Below, piece after piece: positions 43,977 through 59,153 of a stretch of DNA of 64,000 nucleotides. Position 1 is the stretch's first letter. Each line of letters starts with the position of its first letter. The stretch lies in the NCBI GenBank assembly GCA_044229975.1, contig JBGARZ010000001.1, positions 256,001 through 320,000 on the forward strand. The letters are read 5' to 3'. The stretch comes from Polyangiales bacterium (GTDB lineage: Bacteria; Myxococcota_A; Polyangia; Polyangiales; Ga0077539). A model generated the notes under the pieces. The model was not told the origin of the DNA. It did not search any database and saw only the letters and a program-made list of their open reading frames with translations. The position numbers and the translations under genes were made by a program.

Positions 43977-44098
43977 GGGAGTGGTCTCCGGGGACGTCGA
44001 GAGAAGCCCTGGACGCTACCCAACCGAAGGCCCCCATGGTGAGTTCGTTGCTCGCAGATTTTCGATGGTGTCCAATCGCACGCTGGACGGAGAAGTCG

Positions 44099-47000
44099 AT
44101 GACGCGATCACGGGGGAGTGTCGGGGGTTTCGGGTGGGTGGCGCTTCTCGCGGTCGCGTGCGTAGGCGGCGCAGCGCGGCGGCCGACGACGGGCGCGCTC
44201 TCCCCGGCGGAGCAGTTGCAAGCCTGGGAGCGCGGGTGCGCCGTCGGCGAGTCGGGCGACTGCCTGGCGCTCGGCGTGGCATACGCCGAGGGCGAAGGCG
44301 TGCGGGAGGACATGACCCGCGCGACGGCCCTCTTCCGCCGCGGCTGCGAGAGCGGAAACCTGCGGGCGTGCGCGCGGCTGGGGTCGATGTTCCAGGCGGG
44401 GCTCGTGGGCGGCGCGCGCGACGCGGCGATGGCGGAGACGCTGTACCGACGGGCGTGCGACGGCGGCGACACCTGGGGCTGCACCAACCTCGGGGCGATG
44501 CTGGTCGAGGGCGAAGACGTCCCGCGCGACCTCGTGCGCGGCTTCGCGCTCTACGAGCGGGCCTGCGACGGCGGTGACGGCGTCGCGTGCTCCAACCTCG
44601 CCAACAACTACCAGTCCGGGGAGGTCGTCGTGCGCGACGAGGCGCGGGCCCTCGGGTATTTCGAGCGGGCCTGCGCGGGCGACGGGTACGCGTCGTGTCG
44701 ATCGCTCGGGTGGCAGCACCTCGAAGGCCGCGGCATGACCGTCAACGTGCGCCGCGGCGTCGAGCTGCTGGAGCGCGCGTGCAGCCACGCCGTGCCCGAA
44801 GCCTGCACCGACCTCGGGTCGCTCTACCTCGACGGCCGCGTCGTCCCGCGCGACGAGGCCCTCGCGCGCCGATGGCTCCAGCGACGATGCGAGGTCGACC
44901 GCGCCAGCACCTGCGACGCGGCCGACCAGGTGCAGCGCGACGCCGAGGCGTTCGCCACCGCGCGCCAGCAGTGCGACGCCGGCCCGGCGACGGCGTGCGT
45001 GGCGCTCGGCATCGCGTACGTCCGCGGCGCGGGTACGGTCGTCGACGTGGCGCGGGCCGCCGAGATCCTCACGCGGGCCTGCGACGCGGGCGCGGTGGAG
45101 GCCTGCTCCGTACGAGCGGCGGCGCTCCACGACTCCGAAGCGCCCGGCGACCGCGCGACCGCGGTGCGCCTCTTCCAGCGGGCCTGCGACGGGGGTTGGA
45201 TCCCGGCCTGCAACGACCTCGGCGCGATGTACGACGCGGGCCGCGGCGTGCCGCGCGACTGGGTCCGCGCGATCGAGCTCTACCGCCACGTGTGCGACCG
45301 GGACGACGGCGCCGGGTGCGGCAACCTCGCGATCCATCTGGAGTCGGGCGAAGGCATCGCGCGCGACGACACGCAGGCCGCGCAGCTCCATCAGCGGGCC
45401 TGCCGGCTGGGGCAGTCGATCTCCTGCGCGCACCTCGGGCACATGCTCTTCGACGGCCGCGGCGTCACGCGCGACCTCGCGCAGGGCGTGCAGATGCTGG
45501 TGCGCGCGTGCGAGCTCGGGCACACCGCGACGTGCGATGGCCTCCGCGCGGTCACCGCCTCCCGCGCCTCGGCCGAGCGGGCCGCGCGCGCCTGCGAACG
45601 TCACGAGGCCCGCGGCTGCTACGACCTGGCGCAGCACCTCAGCGAGGGGCGCGGCATCGATCGCAACCCGGCGCGCGCGGCGGCGATGTTCCTGGTGGCC
45701 TGCGACGGGCGCTACCTCGCGGGCTGCAACGCGCTCGCGCGGATGTACCTGAGCGCGGAGGGCGTCGCGCGCGACTACGCAGGCGCGGCGGTGCTCGCGG
45801 GTCGCGCCTGCGACGGCGGGCACGCGCCGGCGTGCAGCACCCTGGGATGGATCCACTCGCGCGGGTACGGCGTGCCGCGCGACGAGGCGCGGGCGGCGAC
45901 GCTCTTTCGTCGGGCGTGCGACGGGCGCGACGCCGCGGGCTGCGAGGTGCTCGGGTGGATGTCGTCGCAGGGGCGCGGGATGCCGCGCGACGTCGTGCAG
46001 GCGACACGCTTCTACGGGCGGGCCTGCGAGCTGGGACACCGCGGGGGCTGCCTCTACCTGGGCTGGGCCTACGAGGTGGCGAGCGGCGTCGAGCGTGACG
46101 CCGCCCGTGCCGCGTCGCTCTACCGCCGCTCGTGTGAGGCGGGCGAAGCCGAGGCGTGCCGTCGCCTGGGCGGGTGCCTCGCGACCGGCTACGGGGTCGC
46201 GCAAAACGTCGCCGAGGCCCTGCGGCGCTACGAGCAGGCGTGTCGCGGCGGCGACGACGAAGGCTGCGTGAGCTGGGGCCTGTCGCTCGCCGTGGGCTTC
46301 GGCGGGCTGGAAGACCCGGCGCAGGCGATCGACCTGATGGGCGGCGCGTGCGACCGGGGAAACGCGGGCGCGTGCTTCAACACGGCCTCGCTCCTGGCGG
46401 GCGGGCGCGGCGCGGCGCGCGACGTCGCGAGGGCCGACGCGCGGTGGGCGCAGGCGGCGACCATCTACCGGCGCGAGTGCGACGGGGGCAACCGCGGCGC
46501 GAGCTGCGGCGAGCTGGGCAACATGCTTCGCCTCGGGCTGGGCGTCGATCGCGACGCGGCGCAGGCGCGAGACCTCCTCACGCGCGCCTGCACCACGCAT
46601 CCTGGGTACTGCATCGACCTCGCGGCGTCTCCCGCGGGCCAGCGAGACCCGCGGGCCGCGGGTTGGTTCGAGCGGGCGTGCGAGCAGAACGTCGCCGAAG
46701 GCTGCGTGCGCTTCGCCGAGCTGCTGGAGTCGGGCGTCGGGGTGACCCGTGACGCCGCGCGCGCCGTCGCCCTACGGCAGCGCGCCATCGAGATGCTGGA
46801 GGGCTCGCTGGAGACCTCCTTCGACGGCCACGTCGGGCTGGTGCTCGGTCGGCTGTACCTCGCCGGTCGCGGCGTCGCGCAGAACCCCACGCGCGCCGCG
46901 CTCGTGCTGCAAGGCGGGTGCGACCGCGGGTTGGGGGAGGCCTGCGGCGAGCTGTCACGGCTCTATGGCAGCGGCCTCGGCGTGACCCGCGACGCGGCGC

Positions 47001-47170
47001 GTGCGGCTTCGCTGCGAGCGGCGGCGTGTGCGTTGGGAGAGCTTCGGATGTGCCCGGCCGGGAGGCGGCCGAGGCCCGCGCGACCGACCACGACTCCGGC
47101 CCCGGCGGCGCCCCCGCGCGAGACCCCCGTGCTGGAGGTCCCGCTGCCCTGGGACGGCGCCATGACCTGA
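44099..47170 (+). CDS. Large Cys-rich Sel1-like repeat (Hcp-type) secreted protein
   Basis: Signal/lipobox AVAC; roughly 20 or more ~36-aa repeats of the form ACxxGxxxxCxxLGxxYxxGxGVxRDxxRA. Confidence 0.9.
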   Translation: MTRSRGSVGGFGWVALLAVACVGGAARRPTTGALSPAEQLQAWERGCAVGESGDCLALGVAYAEGEGVREDMTRATALFRRGCESGNLRACARLGSMFQAGLVGGARDAAMAETLYRRACDGGDTWGCTNLGAMLVEGEDVPRDLVRGFALYERACDGGDGVACSNLANNYQSGEVVVRDEARALGYFERACAGDGYASCRSLGWQHLEGRGMTVNVRRGVELLERACSHAVPEACTDLGSLYLDGRVVPRDEALARRWLQRRCEVDRASTCDAADQVQRDAEAFATARQQCDAGPATACVALGIAYVRGAGTVVDVARAAEILTRACDAGAVEACSVRAAALHDSEAPGDRATAVRLFQRACDGGWIPACNDLGAMYDAGRGVPRDWVRAIELYRHVCDRDDGAGCGNLAIHLESGEGIARDDTQAAQLHQRACRLGQSISCAHLGHMLFDGRGVTRDLAQGVQMLVRACELGHTATCDGLRAVTASRASAERAARACERHEARGCYDLAQHLSEGRGIDRNPARAAAMFLVACDGRYLAGCNALARMYLSAEGVARDYAGAAVLAGRACDGGHAPACSTLGWIHSRGYGVPRDEARAATLFRRACDGRDAAGCEVLGWMSSQGRGMPRDVVQATRFYGRACELGHRGGCLYLGWAYEVASGVERDAARAASLYRRSCEAGEAEACRRLGGCLATGYGVAQNVAEALRRYEQACRGGDDEGCVSWGLSLAVGFGGLEDPAQAIDLMGGACDRGNAGACFNTASLLAGGRGAARDVARADARWAQAATIYRRECDGGNRGASCGELGNMLRLGLGVDRDAAQARDLLTRACTTHPGYCIDLAASPAGQRDPRAAGWFERACEQNVAEGCVRFAELLESGVGVTRDAARAVALRQRAIEMLEGSLETSFDGHVGLVLGRLYLAGRGVAQNPTRAALVLQGGCDRGLGEACGELSRLYGSGLGVTRDAARAASLRAAACALGELRMCPAGRRPRPARPTTTPAPAAPPRETPVLEVPLPWDGAMT

Positions 47171-47177
47171 GGCGCGA

Positions 47178-48452
47178 TCAGCGCATCAGGACGACGCGGA
47201 TGCGCTGGTTGTACGTGTCGGCGATGAAGAGCCGGCCGCCGGTGTCGGTCTCGACGCCGTTGGGGCGATCGAGCAGGGCGAGCGTGGGAGAGCCGCCGTC
47301 GCCGTCGAAGCCGCGCATGCCGCAGCGGCCCGCGACGGTGCGGATGTTTCCGTCGGCGCCCACGGCGCGCACGCAGGAGTTCTGCGTGTCGGCGATGTAG
47401 ACGGTTCCGTCGGGGCCGACCTCGACGTCGGTGGGCTGGTTGAGCGTCGCCGCCGTGGCCGCGCCGCCGTCGCCCGTGGCGCCGACCATGCCCGTGCCCG
47501 CGAAGGTGGTGATCATGCCCGCGGTGGTGACCTTGCGGATGACGTTGTTGCCCGTGTCGGCGATGTAGAGGTTGCCGAGGCTGTCCATGTCGATGCGGCC
47601 CGCGGGGTTGGCCGCCTGACCGATGGGGTTGCGGAGCTGCGCCATCAGCGCCGGGCCGTTGTCCCCACTGAAGCCCGCCATGCCGTTGCCCACGACGGTG
47701 TTGATCATGCCGTTGCCGTCGACGCGGCGGATTCGCTGGTTGGCCTGGTCGGCGATGTACACGTCGCCCGTCGGCGCGATCACGATGCCCACCGGGAGGT
47801 CGAGGATCGCGTTGAGGGCCGGGCCGCCGTCGCCGCCGAAGCTGCGGCCGCCGGTGCCGCAGATGTCCTCGATCATCGAGTCGGCCATGCCGACGTTGGT
47901 CACGCGCTTGATGAGGCTGTTGTGCCACGCGGCGATGATCATCCGCCCCTGCGGGTCGAAGGCGATGTTGGTCGGGTGGTTGAGGCGGAAGCGCAGCGCG
48001 GGCGACGCCATGCGCGGAGTGCCCGGAGGGATGGGCGGGTCGACGCCGTCGGAGAGCTCACCCGTGCCGACCACCGTACGAACGGTGCCGTCGGAGGCCT
48101 GTTCGCGGACGACGTGGTTGTTCCAGTCGAGGAAGTAGAGTCGGCCGTTGGGGCCGAGGGTCATGTCCTGCGGGAGGTACGTGCGCGACGCGGTGCCCGC
48201 GACGTTGTTGGCGCCGACTCCTGCCTCACCGTTGCCGATGATGGTGCAGATGGTGCCCGCGCGCGGCGTGCACTGGGTGTTGGTGACCGGCGGCGGCGTG
48301 TCGAGGGTGGCGCCGCAGCTGCTGGCGAGCGCCTGGTCTTCGGTGAGCACGTCGGCGCAGGGGTCGTTGGTGCAGCTCACGGCGACGACCGCCAGGGTGA
48401 GCAGGGAGAGGTGGTGGTTTCGCGCGCGCATCGTTCGCTCCATGAGACTCAT
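47178..48452 (-). CDS. NHL-repeat beta-propeller lipoprotein
   Basis: Lipobox AVSC; repeats of GDGGPA...L..P.G...G..YIADxxNxxIR; ATGA coupling to the upstream gene. Confidence 0.88.
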   Translation of the reverse strand: MSLMERTMRARNHHLSLLTLAVVAVSCTNDPCADVLTEDQALASSCGATLDTPPPVTNTQCTPRAGTICTIIGNGEAGVGANNVAGTASRTYLPQDMTLGPNGRLYFLDWNNHVVREQASDGTVRTVVGTGELSDGVDPPIPPGTPRMASPALRFRLNHPTNIAFDPQGRMIIAAWHNSLIKRVTNVGMADSMIEDICGTGGRSFGGDGGPALNAILDLPVGIVIAPTGDVYIADQANQRIRRVDGNGMINTVVGNGMAGFSGDNGPALMAQLRNPIGQAANPAGRIDMDSLGNLYIADTGNNVIRKVTTAGMITTFAGTGMVGATGDGGAATAATLNQPTDVEVGPDGTVYIADTQNSCVRAVGADGNIRTVAGRCGMRGFDGDGGSPTLALLDRPNGVETDTGGRLFIADTYNQRIRVVLMR

Positions 48453-50593
48453 CGCCAGACCCGGCGCACGCGGTCGTTGAGCGTGTCGCAGATGAAGAGG
48501 TTGCCCTGGGCATCAAACGCGATGCCGTGCGGGCGGTAGAGGGAGGCCTGGAGTGCCGGGCCGCGGTCGCCGCCGTAGCCGCGCTGGCCGTTGCCCGCGA
48601 CGGTGGTGATGACGTTGGTGGTGAGGTCCACCGCGCGGATGCGGTGGTTGTTGGTGTCGGCGATGTAGAGCCGACCGTCGGGGCCGAACTCGATGTCCTG
48701 CGGCGAGTTGAGCTGCGCCATGAGGGCGGGGCCGTCGTCGCCCGCGTAGCCGAAGGTGCCGGTGCCCACCAGGGTGGTGATCATCCCGGTGGCAAGCTCG
48801 ACGCGCCGGATGCGGTGGTTGCCGGTGTCCGAGATGTAGAGGTTGCGCTCCTCGCGATCGAGCGCGATGCCGCCCTCGGGCTCGGGGTTCTCACCCGTCT
48901 GGAGGTTGAACGACGCCATCATCGCCGGGCCGTTGTCGCCGCCGTAGCGGCGCATGCCGTCGCCCGCGATGGTGGTGACCATCCCGCCGGCGATGTCGAT
49001 GCGACGCACGCGGACGTTGCCCTGGTCGAGCAGGTACATCGTGTTGCCGTCGCGGGTCATCGCGCCCTTGGAGGGTTGCTTGATGCGGGCCATCGCGAAG
49101 GGTCCGTCGATCCAGCCGGGGCCGCGGCCGAGCGGGACGAAGGTCATGCCCGTGGCCGGATCCCAGCGGCGGATCTTGTGGTTGTGCCAGGCCACCACGA
49201 ACAGCCGCCCGTCGGGGTGGAACATCAAATCGGTCGGGTGGTTGAGCGCCACGGTGTCGCCGGGCGCGCCGGGCTCGGTGAGGTCGGTGGGCATCGGCGG
49301 GCCGTCGCCAGGCTCCGCCGTCCCCATGATGGTCTCGAAGGTGTTGTTGGCCGTGACGCGGCGGATGCGGTGGTTGTTCCAGTCGAGGATGATGGGTCGC
49401 CCGTCGGGGGCGAACTCCATGTCCATCGGCCAGTACATCATCGACTCGCGGAGGGGGCGGTTGTCGCCGTTGAAGCCCGCGACGCCGGCGCCCGCGTACG
49501 TGCAGATGTTGCCCGCCGTCGGGTCGCAGCGGGTGATGGACTCCGGCGTCACGATGGTCGTGCGGGGAATCGCCTCGCCGAAGCGGTAGATGACACCGCG
49601 GGTGAGCGCGCTGGTCTGGAGGTCGCCGCCGACGGCCCACACGGCGCCCGTCGGGTCGACCCAGACGGCGTGGAAGTCGAGCTGCGTGCGCGGCGCGCGA
49701 GCGACCTCACGCCACGCCCCCGAGCGACGCTGGAAGAGCGCGCCCGAGTTGCCCACCGCGAGGGGCGAACCCTCCGCCGGGATGTACACACCGCTCAGCC
49801 GCGGGGCCGTCTCGACGGTGACCGCGCGCCACGGGCTGGTGCCCTCGGACTCCAGGATGATGCCCGACACATTGCCGCCCACGGCGTAGCGCTGCGTGCC
49901 GCGCTGATAGACCGTGAAGAGCGGGCCGCGGCCGCCCTCGGGGACGGCCTGCTGCTCCCACGCGGTACCGTTCCAGTGGATCAACGCGCCGTTGGTGCCG
50001 CAGACGGTGACGTCGTTGGCGGCGGTGCCGTTGACCTTGTACCAGACGGTGGTGGCGTTCATCCCGCCGGGCGCGGCCTGTGCCGACCACGCGGTGCCGT
50101 CGAAGTGCCAGAGCGCGCCGCCGCTGCTGCCGTTGGGGTCACCGCCCACCGCCCACACGTCGTTGGCGCTGGCGCCCCACACGCCGAAGAGCGTCGGGGT
50201 GCTGGCGGGCGTGGTCATGCGCTCGGTGGCGCCGGTGGCCGGGTTGTGGCGCAGCACGGTGCCGTCGCTGCCGACCATGAACACCAGCGTCGGCGAGATG
50301 CCCTGCACCCACCAGAGGCTGCCGTGGCCGAGCCGGGTGTCGATGCGCGTCCAGCGTGTGCCATCGAAGTGCAACGCTTGCGGACCTGTGCCGTCGTTGG
50401 CGTCAGCGCCGACGGCGTAGACGTCCTGCGCGGTGGTGCCCCAGATGGAGAGCATCGCGCCCGGCAGGTCGGCCTGCACCGCCTGCCATTGGAAGCTCGG
50501 CGGCATCTCATCGCTGCAACCGACGGCGGACGCACCGAGCGCCGCCACGACGAGCGTCAACACGCCCGGCCTCATTCCTGATCGCAGTGTCAT
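48449..50593 (-). CDS. Lipoprotein with two beta-propellers (WGxSxxDVWAVG repeats + NHL repeats)
   Basis: Lipobox AVGC; IWGTTAQDVYAVG and VWGASANDVWAVG...HFDGTAW repeats, then NHL repeats; GGAGG RBS before ATG 50593. Confidence 0.86.
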   Translation of the reverse strand: MTLRSGMRPGVLTLVVAALGASAVGCSDEMPPSFQWQAVQADLPGAMLSIWGTTAQDVYAVGADANDGTGPQALHFDGTRWTRIDTRLGHGSLWWVQGISPTLVFMVGSDGTVLRHNPATGATERMTTPASTPTLFGVWGASANDVWAVGGDPNGSSGGALWHFDGTAWSAQAAPGGMNATTVWYKVNGTAANDVTVCGTNGALIHWNGTAWEQQAVPEGGRGPLFTVYQRGTQRYAVGGNVSGIILESEGTSPWRAVTVETAPRLSGVYIPAEGSPLAVGNSGALFQRRSGAWREVARAPRTQLDFHAVWVDPTGAVWAVGGDLQTSALTRGVIYRFGEAIPRTTIVTPESITRCDPTAGNICTYAGAGVAGFNGDNRPLRESMMYWPMDMEFAPDGRPIILDWNNHRIRRVTANNTFETIMGTAEPGDGPPMPTDLTEPGAPGDTVALNHPTDLMFHPDGRLFVVAWHNHKIRRWDPATGMTFVPLGRGPGWIDGPFAMARIKQPSKGAMTRDGNTMYLLDQGNVRVRRIDIAGGMVTTIAGDGMRRYGGDNGPAMMASFNLQTGENPEPEGGIALDREERNLYISDTGNHRIRRVELATGMITTLVGTGTFGYAGDDGPALMAQLNSPQDIEFGPDGRLYIADTNNHRIRAVDLTTNVITTVAGNGQRGYGGDRGPALQASLYRPHGIAFDAQGNLFICDTLNDRVRRVWR

Positions 50594-51452: not shown

Positions 51453-51460
51453 CGGGCGGG

Positions 51461-51907
51461 TCAGCCGGTCTGCTTTACGGGCTCCGGATCGAGCAACGCG
51501 TTGAGCGACCGGCCCGCTTGTGGCGTTGCGAGGACTTCCTTGAGGGCCCCCACAAGTTCGGCCGAGTCTGATGCGAGTTGAAACCCGCCGTCGTAACGAA
51601 CCTTGACCGGGTAGCCAGCCGGGTCGGGCTCGAACTCGCAGAGCATCGTGGGCGCACGGCCTTGGCGTTCGAAGACGAGGGCTTGATAATGCCGCGTAGT
51701 CGATGCCTGTCTCACGTTGCCCGGAGGAACATACATCGTGATTACTGGTGGCCAGATGCGTTCGACCACACCGACCTCGCCGCCCGAGAGCAGTCGGATC
51801 TGAGCGTCGAGATCATCGACGATGGTCTTGATCTCGCGGAGGCGTGCGTCTGCATCGAGCGCTGCCTGTCTCCCCTGCTTCGCGGCCTCCAAGAAATTCT
51901 CACCCAT
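51461..51907 (-). CDS. Hypothetical protein coupled to the EEP nuclease gene
   Basis: 148 aa, 8-nt overlap with the EEP gene, GAGG RBS, lower GC; N-terminal helix then alpha/beta (AGYPVKVRY). Confidence 0.7.
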   Translation of the reverse strand: MGENFLEAAKQGRQAALDADARLREIKTIVDDLDAQIRLLSGGEVGVVERIWPPVITMYVPPGNVRQASTTRHYQALVFERQGRAPTMLCEFEPDPAGYPVKVRYDGGFQLASDSAELVGALKEVLATPQAGRSLNALLDPEPVKQTG

Positions 51908-52820
51908 CGTCTTCCCTCACTTCGGCAGCAGCTTGGTGAATGTACTCCAGCGTGACGACCAGCGGGAGGTGGTCGAGTTGCTCGTCCAGATACGCTCCAC
52001 GGCGACCGCGAAGGGAGTCGCCATGCCATGGAGCAGTCTCATCCTCGCGGAGTGTCCATCCCACTCCCTCGACGAGCGACGCCGACGCCAACACCTGATC
52101 GTAGGTTCGCCAACGGCTCTCGACGCCGCTTCGATAGAAGTGGGTCCCCGAGGATGTGGCACCGCGCAGGTGACCATCGAAAGGCACCCTCGCCCCGAGC
52201 CAACGCCAGGCTGCGTTGTAGAGCAGGTCCGAACGCTTGCGCACCTGGTCGATGTCCCTGGTTCCGTTGAGCAACGCCATGGGCGACTGAAAGGGTTCGG
52301 TGTTGAAGTCTCCCGCGATGAGAACGTGGTCGAACCGACGCTGCGATCCCACCTCAAGCGCGGCGCCCAGCATGATGGCAGCCTGACGCTGAAGGCGTCG
52401 CACATGGTCCTGGTCTCCCATCCCAATGGCCGGCCAGTGGCACAGTCCCAGTCCGAGGAGGTCCTTCGTCGGCAGACTCAACTCGACGACAAGCCCCGCG
52501 CAGATCTTGTGACGGCCGACCTCCGCCGGGACGAGTCGAGCTTGCTCCGCACTCACGACGCGGGTATCGAAGGCGATCACCAGATCGTGTGACACCTCGC
52601 CGCGCTGTCGCGGCACGAGAACGTCCCACTCGCCGTCCAGCCTCAGCCATCCCATCAGCATCCGCAGGGATGCGGCCGTCATCTCGCACAGGCCAATCAC
52701 CGAGCACTGCTCGTCGTCGATCAGCGCCCGCACGACTCTCGCGACCCCCGCGATCTGCGCCTCGGTCAGCTCGGTCCCACCGACGAACCCGGTGTTCCAC
52801 CACCCGAAGCGGAGCTTCAT
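51900..52820 (-). CDS. Endonuclease/exonuclease/phosphatase (EEP) family protein
   Basis: WWNT, IGLCEM, CHWP, AGDFNTEPF, YDQVLAS, DHLPL form a full EEP catalytic set; TATGAT lies 6 nt before the ATG. Confidence 0.88.
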   Translation of the reverse strand: MKLRFGWWNTGFVGGTELTEAQIAGVARVVRALIDDEQCSVIGLCEMTAASLRMLMGWLRLDGEWDVLVPRQRGEVSHDLVIAFDTRVVSAEQARLVPAEVGRHKICAGLVVELSLPTKDLLGLGLCHWPAIGMGDQDHVRRLQRQAAIMLGAALEVGSQRRFDHVLIAGDFNTEPFQSPMALLNGTRDIDQVRKRSDLLYNAAWRWLGARVPFDGHLRGATSSGTHFYRSGVESRWRTYDQVLASASLVEGVGWTLREDETAPWHGDSLRGRRGAYLDEQLDHLPLVVTLEYIHQAAAEVREDDG

Positions 52821-52905
52821 CTCGCGATCATACGGAAGCTCATCAACGAGACCCAGGCCGCAACCAGTCAACCTTCACGATGCGTGGCCGTCGTCCGGTG
52901 GCGGT

Positions 52906-55900
52906 TCAGCGCACGGCGCGCTCGTCCGCGATCTCCTCCAGTTCGACGGTGCACAGCCCGCTGCGCTCGGCCTTCACGTTGACCACCTTGAGCGCGGTGC
53001 CGGGCGCGAGCAGGTACTCCTCCTCGCCCGAAAACGCCGAGTACGCCCGCACGCCCACCGCCCGCGCCGGCTTCACCGCAAACAATGTCCGCTTGCCCTT
53101 CGCCCCCAGGAACGAGTGCGCCACCGACAGCTTCGCCGTGCACGACGACACGCCCCACCACGTCACCGTGCGGCCCGCCGGGTACTGCCCGCGCAGGTCC
53201 ATCGCGACGCCGCGCCACAAGGTCCCATCGAAGCGCTCGATCTTCTCCAGCGCCGCGAGCAGCAGCCGCAGGTACGGCCGAAACGCGTCGACGTTCGCGC
53301 GGTCGGGGTCGCGCAGCGCGGCGTTGACCTGCCGGTAGAAGCCCGAGTCGCAGGTGTACAGGTACAGCGCCGCCACCTCGTGCTCGTCGAGCGCTCCGGC
53401 GCCCGCGGCCAGCTTCCGACGCGCGAAGTCCGACGACTGCTGCGCGAAGTGACCGAGGCCCTTGATCTGCGCCGCAAGCGGGGCGACCGCATCGGCGAAG
53501 GCCACCGCTGCCATCGCGCGCACACCCGTCACCTCGGGCAGCGCCTGCTGCGGCTCCTCCTTCACCTCCTGGAGACGCTCCAGGTAGAGCTTGTGGAGGT
53601 CCATGGTGCGGGCGATGAAGTCACCCATGCGGTCGGCCTCGCCGGTCGACGATGTGGCCACGGCGGACTTGTTCCAGCCGACGCTCGGGAGCCAGTCGAT
53701 GGTCTCCATCGCGAGGCCCTTGAGGGCGGCGTTGACGGCGCCGAAGTGATCGCCGTCGCAGAAGATGTCGCCCTGCGCTGCGGGGTTGGGGTGGTCGATG
53801 TGACGCACCTTCACCGCGGGGTACTTCCGCTCCACGCGCTGCACCACCGACTTCAGCGCCTTCGCCGCCGTGCCCCACCACGCGAACACCACGCCCTTGT
53901 GCGCGGCATCACCGCTCCCCTGCTTGGCCTTGAGAATCTCCTCGACCACCTTCTCCACCACGGGTCGCCAGAACGCCGTGTGCCGCGCGATGGCGTCGGT
54001 GTCGCCGCGGCCCCCATCCGCACTCGCGGTGAGCGCCGCGTTGAGCAGCAGCACCCCCTGCGTCAGCATCGCCTGGAACCACTCCGGCGGCTGCACGGCC
54101 TTCTTCTTGTCGAGCAGCGCGCGGATGTCCGCGATGGGCGTCGCCTTGGGGATGCCGTACTTCGACATCACCGCCGCCTTGATGATGCAGCGGATGCTCG
54201 TGACCCTCCCGAACTGGCTGTCCTTCCAGTGGTTGAAGGTGTTGTCGAACATCGCGATGCCCGTCGCCGACTCCACCCGCGGATACGGGTTCTGCCCGAA
54301 CACCACGACCTTCCACTTCTCGGGGGGATTGGGCTTCAGCGCCTGGAACGTCAGCTCGCGCACCGGCACCACGTCGGGCCCACGCTTCGGACCGATGAAG
54401 TCCGCCGCGTCGCGCTGCGCCTCGATCACCGGCTTGAGCAGCGGCAGCCACGCCTCGCCGCCGCCCTCGAAGAGCTCGTCGAGCTGCAACCCCGACGACA
54501 CGCCCGGCGCGCTAGCCGCCTTCGCGAGGCGCTTGAGCGACCCGATCACCCGGTAGAAGGTCCCATGCGCGCTGAGCTGAACGTCGTCGGCGACGTAGCG
54601 CACGCCCGCCTCGCGCACCGCCCTCGGAACGAGCACCGGAACCGCTCCGTCGACGCGCTCACCATGCGCCGTCACGCGCAGCTTTCCGCCCTCGTGCTCG
54701 CAGGTGAGCAGCACGCCCGACCCGACCTCGGTGACCTCCGGCAGCGACTTCGCCGACCCGCCGCCCGCGCCGCGCGCGCTCAGGTCGGCGCGGCTGCGGG
54801 AGCGCCCCTGGTACGACTGATCACGCAGGATCTTCCGCGCGCTCCGGTCGAGGCCGCCGCCCTCCACGGCGTTGGCGAAGTGTTCGAGCTGCGAGACCTC
54901 CTCGGCGATCTCGTACTCCTCGTCCATCGCCCGCGCGCGCTGGTCGGCCGCCTCGCGTCGCAGCACCGCCGCAGCCTCCGCGCGCTCGCCCGCGTCCGAA
55001 CGTCGCACCGCGCGCTCCTTCGCGAGCGCCACGCGCAGGCGGCTCACGGCGCGCATCACGTTGGGGTCGGGCCGTTCGTCCCCGGCCGCCGTCACGGCCG
55101 CGCGCACGACGGCGTGCCCGGTGACTTCTCCCCGCTTCGCCTGCGCGGCCACGGGGTCGTACTCGTACTCGACGTCGAGGAGGTCGAAGTCGCCCGCCTC
55201 GTCGGGCGCGTGCACGGTGAGCGTGAGGGCGAGGTGGCGGTCTTCGCCGCCGTACACGTCACCTACGGGAACGGTCACCGATCCGTCGCTCTGCGGCACA
55301 AGCCCGCGCGCATCGAGGAGCTCGGTGATGGTCACGCCGCGGCGCGGGCGCAGCGTGACGAAGAGCCCCTGCGCTGCGACCGAGGTGATGCTCTCGCCCT
55401 CGATCATGAACACCTGCGTCGCGTCTTCGGGCGTCTCGATGAAGTAGAAGTTTCCGCGCCCGGCCTCGGCCATGCCGATGAGCAGGTCTTCGTTGAAGTC
55501 GAGGCCGAAGCCGAGGGTCGTCGTGACCACGCCGCGCACGGCTCGCGTCGCGGCCTGGGCGATGATGTCAGGCGTCGACGTGACGCCCACGTTGGCCTGC
55601 CCGTCGGTGAGGAGCAGCACGCGCTTGAGGTCGTCGGCCGCGTCGGGCCGCGAGAGCACGAGGTCGCACCCGCGGTCCCACCCGCCGTGCAGCGCCGTCG
55701 CGCCGCCGGGCCGCACCGCGCGGATCTTCTTGATGATGGCCTCCGGGTCGTCGACCTTCGTAGGCGCGACCAGCGTCTCGATGCGGTTGTCGTAGACCAC
55801 CACGGAGAGCGTGTCGGCGGGCGAGAGCTGCCGCACCAGCAGCCCCGCGGCCTCGGTGGCCTGCTTCAACGGCGCACCCGACATCGAGCCCGAGCGGTCG

Positions 55901-56040
55901 ATCACCACGCTCACCGACAGCGGCCGCCGACCGGGCCGTCGGGACGCGGCGTAGTCGCCGTGGAAGGTCAGGAGGAGGTCGACCGTGATGGTCTGGCCCG
56001 CGGGCAGCGCGGGGCGCGTGAGTCCGTACGAGAGCTCCAT
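52906..56040 (-). CDS. vWA + uracil-DNA-glycosylase-fold + ADP-ribosyltransferase fusion protein
   Basis: vWA MIDAS ([23 protein letters not shown]); UNG motifs ([42 protein letters not shown]...IDW); ART motifs (LYLYT...[28 protein letters not shown]). One uninterrupted ORF. Confidence 0.9.
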
Positions 56041-56177
56041 GCACGCTGGTGTATCGAAGCCCGGCGCACGCTGTCGAGAGGAGGCGTCGAGGGAGGTGTC
56101 AGGCAATGACCAGTTGATGGAGTACCGTGCGGCGATGACGAGAAGGTCCGCCACGTCACGATGACCCCGGTCGGTGC

Positions 56178-56456
56178 GTGGTCCGTACGTCCGCGCATCA
56201 GGTCGGCGGTCACGAAGGCGACAACCGCCTCATCGCGCAGACGGTGTTCGACGGGATGCCTGCGCACGTCGAGACCGTGGTGGCGCAGCCCGGGCTCGGC
56301 GTGATCCACGGCGCGCGGCTGCTGGAGAGCACTGCGCGCAGGCACCTCGTGGCCGCCGCCGCGACGATCAACGCGAAGCGCAAGGTGCCCTTCGAGCTGG
56401 TGATCCCACCGCCGCTTCGCGCGAAGCCGCCCAGGGCGAGGGCGACGAAGCGGTAG
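56178..56456 (+). CDS. Short hypothetical protein or gene remnant
   Basis: 92-aa ORF with high-GC codon pattern filling the gap between the ART fusion and the GH5 gene; no family recognised. Confidence 0.35.
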   Translation: MVRTSAHQVGGHEGDNRLIAQTVFDGMPAHVETVVAQPGLGVIHGARLLESTARRHLVAAAATINAKRKVPFELVIPPPLRAKPPRARATKR

Positions 56457-56496
56457 GGCGTCACGCGAGTGCTGCGAGCACCGTTGCACCCACTGG

Positions 56497-58113
56497 ATGA
56501 ACGGCCGCCTGTGGAAGCTTGCCGCCACGTTGGCCGTCGTCGTCGCGGTTGGCGTGGGCTCGCGGTTCACCGTCCGCCGCCCTCCTGACCGCGGCTTCAT
56601 CCACCGTGAGGGCAACCGCCTCGTCCTGCGCGGTCGCACCTTCCGCTTCGTCGGAACCAACGCCGACATCATGCACGGCCACCAGGAGCGCCGCGAAGCC
56701 ACGCGCGTGCTCGACGCGCTGACCGCCGACCGCATCACCGTCGTACGTCTCTGGGCGCTCGGCGAGACCGACGGCACCGAGGCGTGGCGCGACGACTACG
56801 CCTTCCGCCGCGGCCCCAACGGTTGGATCGCGGTCTCCTTCGCCCACCTCGATCGCATCCTCGTGGCGCTGCGATCGCGCGGCCTCCACGCCATCGTCGT
56901 CCTTGCCAACCGTCTGGGCGACTACGGTGGCTTCCCGCAGTACCTGCGCTGGGCGGGCGTCCGACCGCGCACCAACGTCCTTCGCGCTGGCGAGTTGCAC
57001 CGCGCGTATAGCGACCCAGCCGTCGAGTACGCGTGGCGCGAACACGTCCGGCGCATCGTGGGTCGCACCAACAGCGTCACCGGCGTGGCCTACCGCGACG
57101 ACCCCACCATCATGGCGTGGGAGCTGATGAACGAAGGCACGTCTCCCACCTGCGAAGTCGGTGATCGCATGGTGCGTTGGGTCGACCGGCAGGCGCGCTT
57201 CATCCACGGGCTCGACCCCAACCACCTCGTGAGCGCGGGTCACTTCGGCTACGCGAGCGTGCAGGGGCGCGCGATCTGGCAGCGGGTTCACGCCCTCGAC
57301 AGCGTCGACTACGCCGACCACCACGCCTACCTCGAAGCCACCGAGGCCGTGCTCGAACCTGCGGACCTCGCCCCCTGGTTGGCCGACCGCGTCGCGCTCG
57401 CCCGCGACACGCTGCACAAGCCGCTCGTCATCGGTGAGGTCGGCTTTGCGCGCGAGGACCACACGCGCGACGAACGCGGTCGATGGTACGGCGCCTTCTT
57501 CGACGCGGCGGAGCGCCTCGGCATCTCCGGCGTCGCCGTGTGGACCTATCAGCGCGGGACGGCGGGCGTCAGCGCCCACGGCATCTTCGGCTGGGGGCCG
57601 CTCGCCCAGGAGAACGAGCCCACCCGTGCCGCGCTTCGCGATGCCTCGGAGCGCTTGTCGCGCGCCACCGATGCACCGCCGCCGCCCTCGGCTCGCACAA
57701 CCACGCTGCTCCACGAACAGGGACCGATCTTCGCCCAGGACGCCTGGGTGGACGACGGCGACGGAGCGACCATGGGGCTCGATCCATGGACCTTCGAGGA
57801 GGCTTGCGCGCGGCCGCCGACGGCGTGGGTCGAGTTGCCGCTGTGGCTGCCTGCACGCCCCGTCACGACGCTGGAGCTCACGCTGACGTCGGCGTCGCTC
57901 GGACCGCTCGGCATCACGGTCGCGTTCGACGAGGTGGTGCTCGGTCGACTCGATGCGCCCGGCGTCACCATGCGATCCACGGTCGCGCCCGAGCGTCGGC
58001 ACGAGGTCCACTGGTTGCGGCTGTCGACGTCAGCGCCACGAGGCCGTGCTCTGCTCACCCGCTACAACGTCGAGCTCCCCAGCTCCGACCGCCTCACGCT
58101 GCACGCGCGGTGA
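56497..58113 (+). CDS. GH5 glycoside hydrolase (endo-beta-mannanase-like)
   Basis: N-terminal TM/signal; FRFVGTN, VVRLWA, DYGGFPQY, RTNSVTGVAYRDDPTIMAWELMNE (acid/base), HHAY, KPLVIGEVG (nucleophile). Confidence 0.88.
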   Translation: MNGRLWKLAATLAVVVAVGVGSRFTVRRPPDRGFIHREGNRLVLRGRTFRFVGTNADIMHGHQERREATRVLDALTADRITVVRLWALGETDGTEAWRDDYAFRRGPNGWIAVSFAHLDRILVALRSRGLHAIVVLANRLGDYGGFPQYLRWAGVRPRTNVLRAGELHRAYSDPAVEYAWREHVRRIVGRTNSVTGVAYRDDPTIMAWELMNEGTSPTCEVGDRMVRWVDRQARFIHGLDPNHLVSAGHFGYASVQGRAIWQRVHALDSVDYADHHAYLEATEAVLEPADLAPWLADRVALARDTLHKPLVIGEVGFAREDHTRDERGRWYGAFFDAAERLGISGVAVWTYQRGTAGVSAHGIFGWGPLAQENEPTRAALRDASERLSRATDAPPPPSARTTTLLHEQGPIFAQDAWVDDGDGATMGLDPWTFEEACARPPTAWVELPLWLPARPVTTLELTLTSASLGPLGITVAFDEVVLGRLDAPGVTMRSTVAPERRHEVHWLRLSTSAPRGRALLTRYNVELPSSDRLTLHAR

Positions 58114-58148
58114 CCCCAAACTCGTCGGAAGAGAAGCACCGCCCACGC

Positions 58149-59153
58149 TCACCGCCGCGGCGGCGGCCCTTCGACCCTCGGCGCCGTGCCCACGATCGGC
58201 AGCCGCCGGTGCCCCGCATGCGCCGCGCAGTGTCCGCGCACCACGTCGGCCATCAGCTCCACGAAGGCCGTCGCATCGTTGACCGCACCCGCGCGCTCCA
58301 TCACCAGCCCAACCTCGTCGCAGGTCTCCCTGAGCTCGTGGTCGAGGTCGTACAGCACCTCGACGTGGTCGCACACGAAGCCCAACGGCGACACCACCAC
58401 CGCCTCCAAGCCCTTGGCCCGCTCGGCCCGCGCGTACTCGTTGACGTCGGGACCCAGCCACGGGTCTTCCGGCCGCCCGCTCCGCGATTGAAACACCAGC
58501 GCGTAGTCCGTTCGCCCGAGCCGCTGCATCACCAGCCGCGCCGTCTCTTCGAGGTTGGCCACGTAGCGGCTCTCCGCCGCCATGCTCACCGGGATGCTGT
58601 GCGCCGTGAACACCACCCTCGCCCCCGCGCGCTTCTCCGCCGGCAGCCGCGCGAGCGCCGCCGCCACCCGCTGCGCGTTCGCCAGCACCAGGCCCTCGTG
58701 CGCGAACCAGTCGCCCACGAAGCTCACCTCGACGTCCGCCAGCCCTCGCGCCGCGAGCTCTCTCCGCGCATCGGCGACGTTCACCTTGTACTGCCCGCAG
58801 CTCGAATAACTCTTGTGCCCCGCGGTGATGAACCCCACCGCTCGCCGCACCCCGGCGCGCGACATCTCCGCCAGCGTGTCCGCCAGGAAGGGCCGCCAGT
58901 TTCGCATCCCCACGTAGACCGGCAGCGCCGGACCGTACGCCTTCAGGCGCTCTTCCAGCCCCTTGGCCTGCGCCATCGTCAGCGCCGTGATGGGCGACAC
59001 GCCACCGAACAACTCGTAGTGATGCGCGACCTCCGCCAGCCGCTCAGGGCTCACCCGTCGACCGCGCAGCACGTTGTCGAGAAATGGTCGGATCTCCTCC
59101 ATCCCCTGCGGACCACCGAAGGAGACCACCAGCACCGCGTCGAAGGGCTTCAT
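58149..59153 (-). CDS. hemH: Ferrochelatase
   Basis: VLVVSFGGP, HYELFGGVSPI, GMRNWRP, FTAHSIP, FQSRSG...PWLGPD, GFVCDHVEVLYDLD. Confidence 0.95.
   Translation of the reverse strand: MKPFDAVLVVSFGGPQGMEEIRPFLDNVLRGRRVSPERLAEVAHHYELFGGVSPITALTMAQAKGLEERLKAYGPALPVYVGMRNWRPFLADTLAEMSRAGVRRAVGFITAGHKSYSSCGQYKVNVADARRELAARGLADVEVSFVGDWFAHEGLVLANAQRVAAALARLPAEKRAGARVVFTAHSIPVSMAAESRYVANLEETARLVMQRLGRTDYALVFQSRSGRPEDPWLGPDVNEYARAERAKGLEAVVVSPLGFVCDHVEVLYDLDHELRETCDEVGLVMERAGAVNDATAFVELMADVVRGHCAAHAGHRRLPIVGTAPRVEGPPPRR

Follow-up and report, generated by a model that had tools for sequence, protein, structure and literature searches.

An ADP-ribosyltransferase fused to an altered uracil-DNA glycosylase fold is a candidate DNA-damage sensor in Myxococcota and Actinomycetota

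Introduction

Several described systems bring together DNA sensing, ADP-ribosylation, and macrodomains. The PARP of Herpetosiphon is described as a DNA-activated bacterial WGR-PARP (PMC4245714), and the Streptomyces macrodomain protein SCO6735 as UV-inducible and controlled through RecA-NDp (PMC5087735), while PMC8120803 presents the endogenous ADP-ribosylation of Streptomyces and myxobacteria as poorly understood. Here we examine a gene of a Polyangiales bacterium located on the minus strand at 52906..56040 of a 64,000-nucleotide stretch of contig JBGARZ010000001.1 (assembly GCA_044229975.1, positions 256,001 to 320,000; hereafter the window). Its 1044-residue product joins a von Willebrand factor A (vWA) domain and a small β domain to a domain resembling family-1 uracil-DNA glycosylase (UNG; UDG for the superfamily) and to an ADP-ribosyltransferase (ART). 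Proteins with the latter two domains are called UDG-ART below.

The original prediction, made from the letters of the window, was a sensor–effector conflict protein in which binding of noncanonical DNA activates ADP-ribosylation or NAD+ consumption, leading to abortive infection or damage signaling. Our analysis supports this interpretation in part and adds three features absent from it, namely an altered UNG active site, pairing with a Macro gene, and promoters of the DNA-damage type. With slightly better than even confidence, we propose that the protein is a damage-induced lesion sensor that would trigger reversible mono-ADP-ribosylation. The UNG-like–ART fusion is real, conserved, and apparently undescribed. 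No description of it was found, by title or abstract, in the literature searched on uracil-DNA glycosylase and ADP-ribosyltransferase, in which subscription papers, some reviews, and supplements were not covered, so that an earlier mention in a domain-architecture figure is conceivable, and keyword look-ups in the accessible text of PMC9503650, PMC8120803, PMC4245714, and bioRxiv 10.64898/2026.10.17.759577 found no mention of uracil or glycosylase.

Results

An intact gene encodes four modules

Translation of the minus-strand open reading frame (ORF) gives 1044 codons' worth of protein with zero internal stops. Pfam places VWA at residues 44 to 209 and ART (PF01129) at residues 875 to 1040, both above cut-off, and PDB sequence matches together with an AlphaFold model computed from an 82-row alignment (pLDDT 89.2, pTM 0.72) bear out the single vWA, β, UNG-fold, and ART reading frame that had been predicted. 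The ORF and all four modules are genuine. Because the N terminus folds as the first Ig strand in the model, no signal peptide is evident, although a dedicated signal predictor was not part of the analysis; the predicted lack of a secretion signal is thus upheld as judged from the model alone.

An assembly chimera, a possibility raised with the original prediction, is ruled out because other proteins share the full architecture and an independent contig crosses the junction. Among the best 120 of 277 matches in the protein homolog search, there are at least 39 full-length clusters besides this one (40 with its own) at 54 to 87% identity, including one from the planctomycete Urbifossiella. The 2.6-kb contig, from another public run (record 28), spans the vWA/β/UNG junction at ~90% identity. 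The G+C content at third codon positions (GC3) is 0.93 to 0.94 in either half of the gene.

The N-terminal module (residues 1–425; 54766..56040, minus strand) has an Ig–vWA–Ig–helical organization of the ArnB/Sec23-24-core/ITIH-like type, as indicated by Pfam and by a fold match in which residues 1 to 415 of the model superimpose on ArnB (8s05) with Z 35.1 and a root-mean-square deviation (rmsd) of 4.5 over 372 aligned residues. Its metal ion-dependent adhesion site (MIDAS), DxSxS (55885-55899, minus strand), is intact as predicted, with D48-x-S50-x-S52, T115, and D146 invariant in 37 full-length homologs. The small β domain that follows (residues 430–505; 54526..54753, minus strand), delimited from the model and homologs, also occurs twice in tandem in vWA proteins of the cyanobacterial type and closes the C-terminal end of Streptomyces WGR-propeller proteins, and the vWA–β half as a whole resembles the cyanobacterial-type vWA–β–β proteins. 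Since these relatives exist elsewhere, the vWA–β front end counts as a lineage-specific addition to a core consisting of the UNG-like and ART domains, and it would likely serve to dock partner proteins.

Our locus survey covers the best 80 of 146 GTDB loci, comprising 8 of the vWA type and 72 from actinomycetes. Seven of the eight vWA-type genes are in frame, and the eighth (L001:6478-9608) is split by a frameshift just ahead of the UNG-like domain that is either real or an assembly error. The closest named loci are labeled Polyangiales or Myxococcota, whereas the UNG-like and ART half is found in Actinomycetota and in eukaryote-like proteins too.

The UNG-like domain lacks key catalytic residues throughout its clade

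The UNG-like domain (residues 519–786; 53683..54486, minus strand) is of the Nitratifractor-UNG type according to PDB sequences and the model. Its best PDB sequence match is Nitratifractor UNG (5x3g, E 2e-13), and it adopts the UNG fold (NsaUNG 5x3h, Z 21.0, rmsd 2.8, 238 aligned residues; 3ufm, Z 20.0). The curated UNG cut-offs of TIGR00628 (57.2 bits vs 185.75) and PRK05254 (64.6 vs 162) are missed. Alignment reveals that motif A reads GQNPY (54283-54297, minus strand), with Asn584 in place of the catalytic Asp, and that within the same domain interval and strand the stacking Phe is replaced by Met597, Asn667 is kept, and motif B reads HPNPAA. None of 117 close homologs has the motif-A Asp, and Asn occupies this position in 116 of them, indicating strong bacterial conservation.

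The same losses extend across a wider clade. A tree of 62 rows was built rapidly, with SH-aLRT as the sole measure of support; it holds 10 rows from the first homolog search plus rows that passed a coverage filter among the best 150 of 768 matches from a search of 50%-identity representatives. It contains a UDG-ART clade of 31 rows (support 98), 24 with an ART and 7, mostly shorter proteins, without an ART match. Neither the catalytic Asp nor the stacking Phe occurs in any of the 31, whereas 17 of 18 stand-alone relatives have the former and 18 of 18 the latter. In the clade, motif A has N, S, A, M, or T where the Asp would be, and the stacking position is M, L, or H in all rows. Other pocket residues persist, including Asn204 (N667) in 31/31, Tyr/Phe147 in 31/31 (Tyr, as at Y586, in 29), and Gln144 (Q583) in 26/31, in human UNG numbering, in which the stacking Phe is F158. 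The motif-B His is present in 18/18 stand-alone relatives and retained as His750 in 20/31 clade rows; it falls gap-free on H750 in alignment with 67 canonical UNGs and on N752 in alignment with the nearest stand-alone relatives.

Because the catalytic Asp and stacking Phe are gone from the clade, the UNG-like domain is likely noncutting, and probably functions as a binder rather than a cutter. Conservation is also higher here than anywhere else in the protein, with a median identity over 36 homologs of 74% compared with 58% for the ART and 50% for the vWA. A conserved but altered UNG fold next to an intact ART agrees with the sensor–effector logic of the original prediction. A role as the housekeeping UNG is ruled out by the missed cut-offs, by the lost catalytic residues, and by the separate ung of the hosts, a canonical copy of which is present in 5/5 actinomycete hosts tested. 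The window's genome has five other UDG-superfamily genes.

The residue pattern bears on two alternatives to a lesion binder. The first is a slow or respecified glycosylase that excises a base by using Asn584 and His750, after which the ART would cap the abasic site or nick or tag repair proteins. MUG, TDG, and SMUG1 use Asn at the motif-A catalytic position, and both the near-invariant bacterial Asn and the retention of Q583, Y586, and N667 would suit such an enzyme, as would the gap-free placement of His750 on canonical profiles and a metagenome locus, described below, in which UDG-ART adjoins endonuclease III. However, the motif-A residue varies within the clade, His750 is missing from 11 of its 31 rows, the nearest relatives place the catalytic His at Asn752, and the stacking Phe is replaced throughout, even though this aromatic is described as Phe or Tyr across UDGs (PMC10776899). 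We consider this alternative improbable.

The second, which we rate lower still, holds that the former uracil pocket has been given over to an NAD+-pathway ligand (nicotinamide, ADP-ribose, or an ADP-ribosylated base) and serves to adjust the ART in a PARP/Macro network, with no reading of lesions. An invariant amide-binding Asn amid lost catalytic residues fits this idea, as does the recurrence of the degenerate clade with ART, Macro, WWE, PBZ, and zf-PARP domains. Indeed, among 53 distant proteins scanned, several append WWE, SAP, or SAM to the UNG-like–ART module, and in a neighboring degenerate UNG group the fused partner is a protein kinase or comprises zf-PARP, FHA, and/or PBZ. The SAP and zf-PARP fusions nevertheless suggest DNA binding, and the Ser of the Pro-Ser loop, the WG loop, and the basic NsaUNG-type insertion all persist in the UNG-like domain.

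The proteins of this neighboring group (P0197, P0200, P0208, P0210, P0216, P0230, P0236, P0250, and P0266; P0158 and P0162) are eukaryote-like, have a fully degenerate UNG domain, and make up a further pseudo-glycosylase group. PBZ is described as restricted to eukaryotes (PMC4245714).

The ART domain retains its catalytic signature

The C-terminal domain (residues 846–1044; 52909..53505, minus strand) is an R-S-E class ART according to Pfam, fold, and alignment. It scores 42.7 against the 22.3-bit cut-off of PF01129 and matches the folds of ART2.2 (1gxy, Z 19.0, rmsd 3.0, 206 aligned residues) and Tre1 (6drh, Z 18.9). The predicted R, S, and ExE are found in LWRGV (53206-53220), VSSCT (53137-53151), and GEEEY (53014-53028; all minus strand), and R943, S966, and E1006-x-E1008 are likewise invariant in 37 full-length homologs. 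The domain is closest to Vis and Tre1, with E1006 and E1008 aligning with the E-A-E of both.

The ExE signature suggests an arginine acceptor. The Macro partner described below suggests an acidic residue, the end or a base of DNA, or ADP-ribose in free form, given that MacroD and TARG1 are described as cleaving acidic-residue and nucleic-acid-end linkages and DraG/ARH as cleaving arginine linkages (PMC8120803). Some bacterial ART effectors are described as modifying RNA (PMC13617354). As a rough ranking, protein arginine comes first at somewhat under an even chance, a nucleic acid follows at a moderate distance, and NAD+ hydrolysis comes last.

UDG-ART is paired with a Macro gene in actinomycetes

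A Macro hydrolase gene lies divergent to UDG-ART in 71 of 72 actinomycete loci (head-to-head, 60–555 nt) and is fused to it in the remaining one, and 74 of 77 Streptomyces-type proteins among the matches listed are Macro fusions. The original prediction mentioned stand-alone UDG-ART proteins in Actinobacteria; these proteins are not truly stand-alone, being paired with Macro. Apart from close kin, Macro is the only recurring neighbor over the 80 loci. The actinomycete partner is MacroD-like (N..GGVD) and has no PDB sequence match. In the window's genome (G000), its ortholog (54% identity) lies on another contig in a WGR–PARP–Macro–HEAT–SWIM operon (L081:8550-15068, G000:C38) that has the damage motif described below upstream. 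PARP directly precedes Macro in 16/16 loci checked in the host's family, and Macro is present in all 11 UDG-ART-bearing relatives.

In metagenome locus L107, endonuclease III and UDG-ART lie in divergent orientation to a PARP–Macro–HEAT operon (with a WGR-PARP), and loss of the two middle genes of this arrangement would yield the actinomycete layout.

Seven loci (L093 and L096-L101) hold a second, stand-alone UDG-ART paralog clade in the host's family with ~50% identity and no damage motif. The motifs of L096-L101 have become GQSPY, LLVDAS (Asn→Asp), and HWHPA, and L093 retains GQNPY and LLLNAS. Two further stand-alone UDG-ART genes (L241 and L242) lie near a gene for what appears by eye to be an RRM-like RNA-binding protein, with no Macro within ~1.5 kb.

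Promoter motifs link the loci to DNA-damage regulons

The motif TGTC(A/G)G-N10-TA-N3-T is present in 66 of 71 actinomycete spacers, facing Macro in 63, mostly 37 to 44 nt ahead of its start, and facing UDG-ART in 31 (65 and 33, respectively, with a relaxed motif). It occurs at 3.2/kb in the spacers compared with 0.006/kb in 2 Mb of flanks, and variants with other spacings (8, 9, 11, 12, or 13) are found in 0/71 spacers. The fused loci L078 and L106 carry it upstream of the fusion, and, as a positive control, it precedes the main recA in 3/3 actinomycete hosts tested. A LexA box of the actinomycete consensus gave no signal (10/71 spacers vs 6.9 in shuffles). The PafBC consensus is given as tGTCgg(N10)tA(N3)T (PMC8635444) and is equated with RecA-NDp (PMC8223512). 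The actinomycete loci therefore carry a promoter of the PafBC/RecA-NDp type, from which regulon membership is predicted.

The window has a different element. An imperfect operator-like palindrome, GTGTCAGGCAATGACCA, lies at 56096..56112 (plus strand), 72 nt upstream of the ATG. In the host's family, palindromes of this kind (~GACA-N5-TGTC) are found upstream of vWA-type orthologs, PARP–Macro operons, and a second Macro copy. When a matrix from 14 upstream regions of relatives was scanned over the window's genome, top sites adjoined recA, ssb, ruvA, ruvB, gyrA, topB, priA, recQ, yoaA/dinG, radA, recN, and top6B, as well as an HTH-WYL-WCX gene, for example at C11:417059 (recA), C11:672209 (ssb), and C38:975988 (the WYL gene, L224). 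These 13 genes were chosen by eye among the top 60 sites, with annotation covering 20 of these; the other seven gave one SWIM match and six blanks. They are the otherwise unannotated L225 (with SWIM) and L226-L231. The main recA of relatives scores 21 to 23 in four of five genomes and 9.8 in the fifth, and the palindrome is absent at three second recA copies of relatives. The host's four ARH genes, all in trans on other contigs, show no clear upstream palindrome site.

The site in the window scores 12.3, or 10.4 with a matrix from repair-gene sites alone, and ranks in the top 1.6 to 2.1% of 4173 upstream regions. Six orthologs have the site at the same position, with scores of 13 to 20 under the repair-gene-only matrix. 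GACA-N5-TGTC thus probably marks a WYL-controlled DNA-damage regulon in this myxobacterial family, with the host WYL protein as its predicted binder. WYL activators such as PafBC and DriD are described as responding to single-stranded DNA (PMC7617703 and PMC9186387).

Distribution and context weighed against a role in phage defense

The main role of the protein is likely damage sensing rather than an anti-phage suicide switch. Under the latter view, to which we give a low probability, the pocket would read uracil or 5-hydroxymethyluracil in phage DNA, or phage-induced damage, and the ART would poison the cell or drain NAD+, with Macro as the safety catch. The distribution of UDG-ART fits this view: it is present in 0/8 genomes of the same genus, 11/30 of the same family, and 4/300 others in a wider sample, and the gene sits in a 6.7-kb insertion (~51455-58152) that is missing from 5/8 same-genus genomes, where the flanks are joined within 15 to 46 bp. 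Patchy distribution and insertion placement are common for defense genes. An ART nearest to Vis and Tre1 and a DarTG-like pairing of writer and eraser also fit, and a DNA-damage promoter could fire in infection too. Defense loci likewise come under WYL regulators, as described for BrxR (PMC9122589).

However, recA, ssb, and ruvAB have the same promoter motifs, and the sensor domain is highly conserved rather than fast-evolving. PADLOC 2.0 has no match for the vWA–UNG-like–ART protein (P0001) or for P0047. On 120 crudely called flanking ORFs, covering 32 of 63 full-length actinomycete loci, it gave 13 matches, of which 12 are generic (kinase, HTH, hydrolase, TPR, and desaturase) and one is defense-like (Mrr-like). 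No defense-island context was found in this set. Nor was phage carriage, as INPHARED returned only ordinary UNG matches and IMG/VR none. PLSDB holds the whole module in four records, some of them chromosome-sized. Of the two outcomes originally proposed, damage signaling thus gains from the recA-type promoter motifs and the Macro pairing, and abortive infection against phages with uracil or 5-hydroxymethyluracil is less favored.

Also within the variable insertion are a GH5 gene (56497-58113) and a 92-residue ORF that lacks annotation (56178-56456). The same site carries other inserts of ~2.4 kb in G001 and G008. A low-GC3 two-gene cassette at 51461-52871 (minus strand) encodes an EEP-family nuclease/phosphatase and a 148-residue unannotated protein. 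Partnership of this pair with UDG-ART was rejected on its GC3 (0.70–0.76 vs 0.94) and its absence beside the gene in the 80 loci; one relative's contig (run X5) may have EEP adjoining UDG-ART. A paralogous cassette lies elsewhere in the genome (G000:C32:406726-408187), and the pair, which has no PADLOC match, is possibly a mobile defense-like unit. Farther away, the region 44036-50581 encodes, by eye, two NHL-like repeat proteins upstream of another 1044-residue protein (44036-47170, minus strand) with Sel1-like-looking Cys-rich repeats.

Discussion

The lesion-sensing reading favored here builds on what was observed of the domain architecture, the residues kept and lost, the linkage to Macro, and the promoter motifs. 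Judging from the latter, DNA damage would turn the gene on through a WYL-type activator; in actinomycetes this would be PafBC and in the host probably the HTH-WYL-WCX protein at G000:C38:976059. Because Gln583, Tyr586, and Asn667 are kept but the catalytic Asp and stacking Phe are lost, the UNG-like domain is predicted to flip a lesion out and keep it bound but uncut, whether the lesion is uracil, a different damaged base, or an abasic site. Binding may then localize the ART or activate it, so that a single ADP-ribose would be transferred from NAD+, and the co-regulated MacroD-like protein could erase or read the mark.

Several observations weigh against this proposal. The patchy distribution and the location in a 6.7-kb insertion have been noted. 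The window's palindrome is weak (10–12, top ~2%) and could belong to the divergent side; the site is missing at the vWA-type loci L012, L103, and L102, at L241, L242, and L107, and at 7/7 stand-alone myxobacterial paralogs. The strict actinomycete motif does not face UDG-ART in 40 of 71 loci. The register of the motif-B His is ambiguous, shifting with the set of UNGs aligned. In addition, the host Macro need not serve UDG-ART, because it follows PARP in every locus checked and is also present in 6/8 same-genus genomes, which have no UDG-ART. Finally, arginine-ADP-ribose cleavage is unreported for MacroD/TARG1 in the accessible text of PMC8120803, which clashes with the ExE signature.

A bolder form of the proposal, which we regard as doubtful, is that a noncutting lesion clamp derived from a base-excision glycosylase triggers, by allostery, an ART of the cholera-toxin class whose target may be the damaged DNA itself, with a co-induced Macro hydrolase as the eraser and with unrelated WYL-activator regulons in Actinomycetota and Myxococcota. 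If so, bacteria and protists would possess a second DNA-damage alarm of independent origin, and the endogenous ADP-ribosylation of Streptomyces and relatives, so far unexplained, would gain a strong candidate for its writer. In either form, the UDG-ART family amounts to a concrete writer that can be put to the test, equipped with its own lesion-reader fold, accompanied by a cognate eraser, and with a signal for its induction that is predicted. The family also reveals a pseudo-glycosylase clade tied to ADP-ribose domains in eukaryote-like proteins and, as a by-product, a DNA-damage regulon motif and candidate WYL regulator for this myxobacterial family.

Each module has recognizable relatives. 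The UNG-like domain shares with the unconventional family-1 UNG of Nitratifractor salsuginis (5X3G/5X3H) the basic insertion, a PYPR-ESA-G segment, and LLLN, but here GQDPY has become GQNPY, Met replaces the stacking Phe, and an ART is fused. The ArnB/VWA2 proteins (8S05 and 5A8J), a Catenulispora vWA protein (4FX5), and ITIH heavy chains have the same Ig–vWA–Ig–helical arrangement and an intact MIDAS, whereas here one β repeat and then UNG-like–ART are fused behind it. Vis (4XZJ), Tre1 (6DRE/6DRH), and ART2.2 (1GXY) share the PF01129 fold with its N-terminal helical lobe, R-S-E triad, and ExE. Unlike these, the present protein lacks a delivery or secretion context, with no Tre1/Tri1-type delivery domain detected by Pfam and no adjacent ARH immunity gene among the 80 loci, and it instead combines a fused UNG fold with Macro pairing and DNA-damage promoters.

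At the level of systems, SCO6735 is the nearest regulatory precedent, with the same RecA-NDp promoter type, but that macrodomain is TARG1/ALC1-like and the one here belongs to a different, MacroD-like clade. DarTG likewise pairs an ART with a macrodomain and has a DNA link, and the Macro partner accompanies all 72 actinomycete loci, being in trans only in the window's genome. In contrast to DarTG, the genes are divergent or fused rather than arranged as a toxin–antitoxin operon, Macro is MacroD-like, and a UNG-like sensor is added; Pfam searched to E 0.1 finds no DarT-family domain in the protein and PF01129 as its only ART match. PARP4 is reminiscent in combining vWA with ART, although the PARP catalytic domain PF00644 (H-Y-E) is not found in the protein by Pfam and the host PARP is separate. 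With PARP1-type sensing and the bacterial WGR-PARPs, the protein shares a predicted scheme in which a DNA sensor is combined with a writer dependent on NAD+ and a macrodomain as eraser; the host WGR-PARP operon is served by the same Macro clade and operator motif. Here, however, the transferase is ARTC (R-S-E) rather than ARTD (H-Y-E), it probably attaches ADP-ribose singly, and the part of the sensor is taken by a glycosylase fold of the base-flipping kind instead of a WGR domain or zinc finger. If the proposal is correct, base-lesion sensing is coupled to R-S-E ADP-ribosylation in parallel to PARP1, by a system that likely works like PARP/PARG or DarTG yet belongs to neither, nor to the bona fide UNGs.

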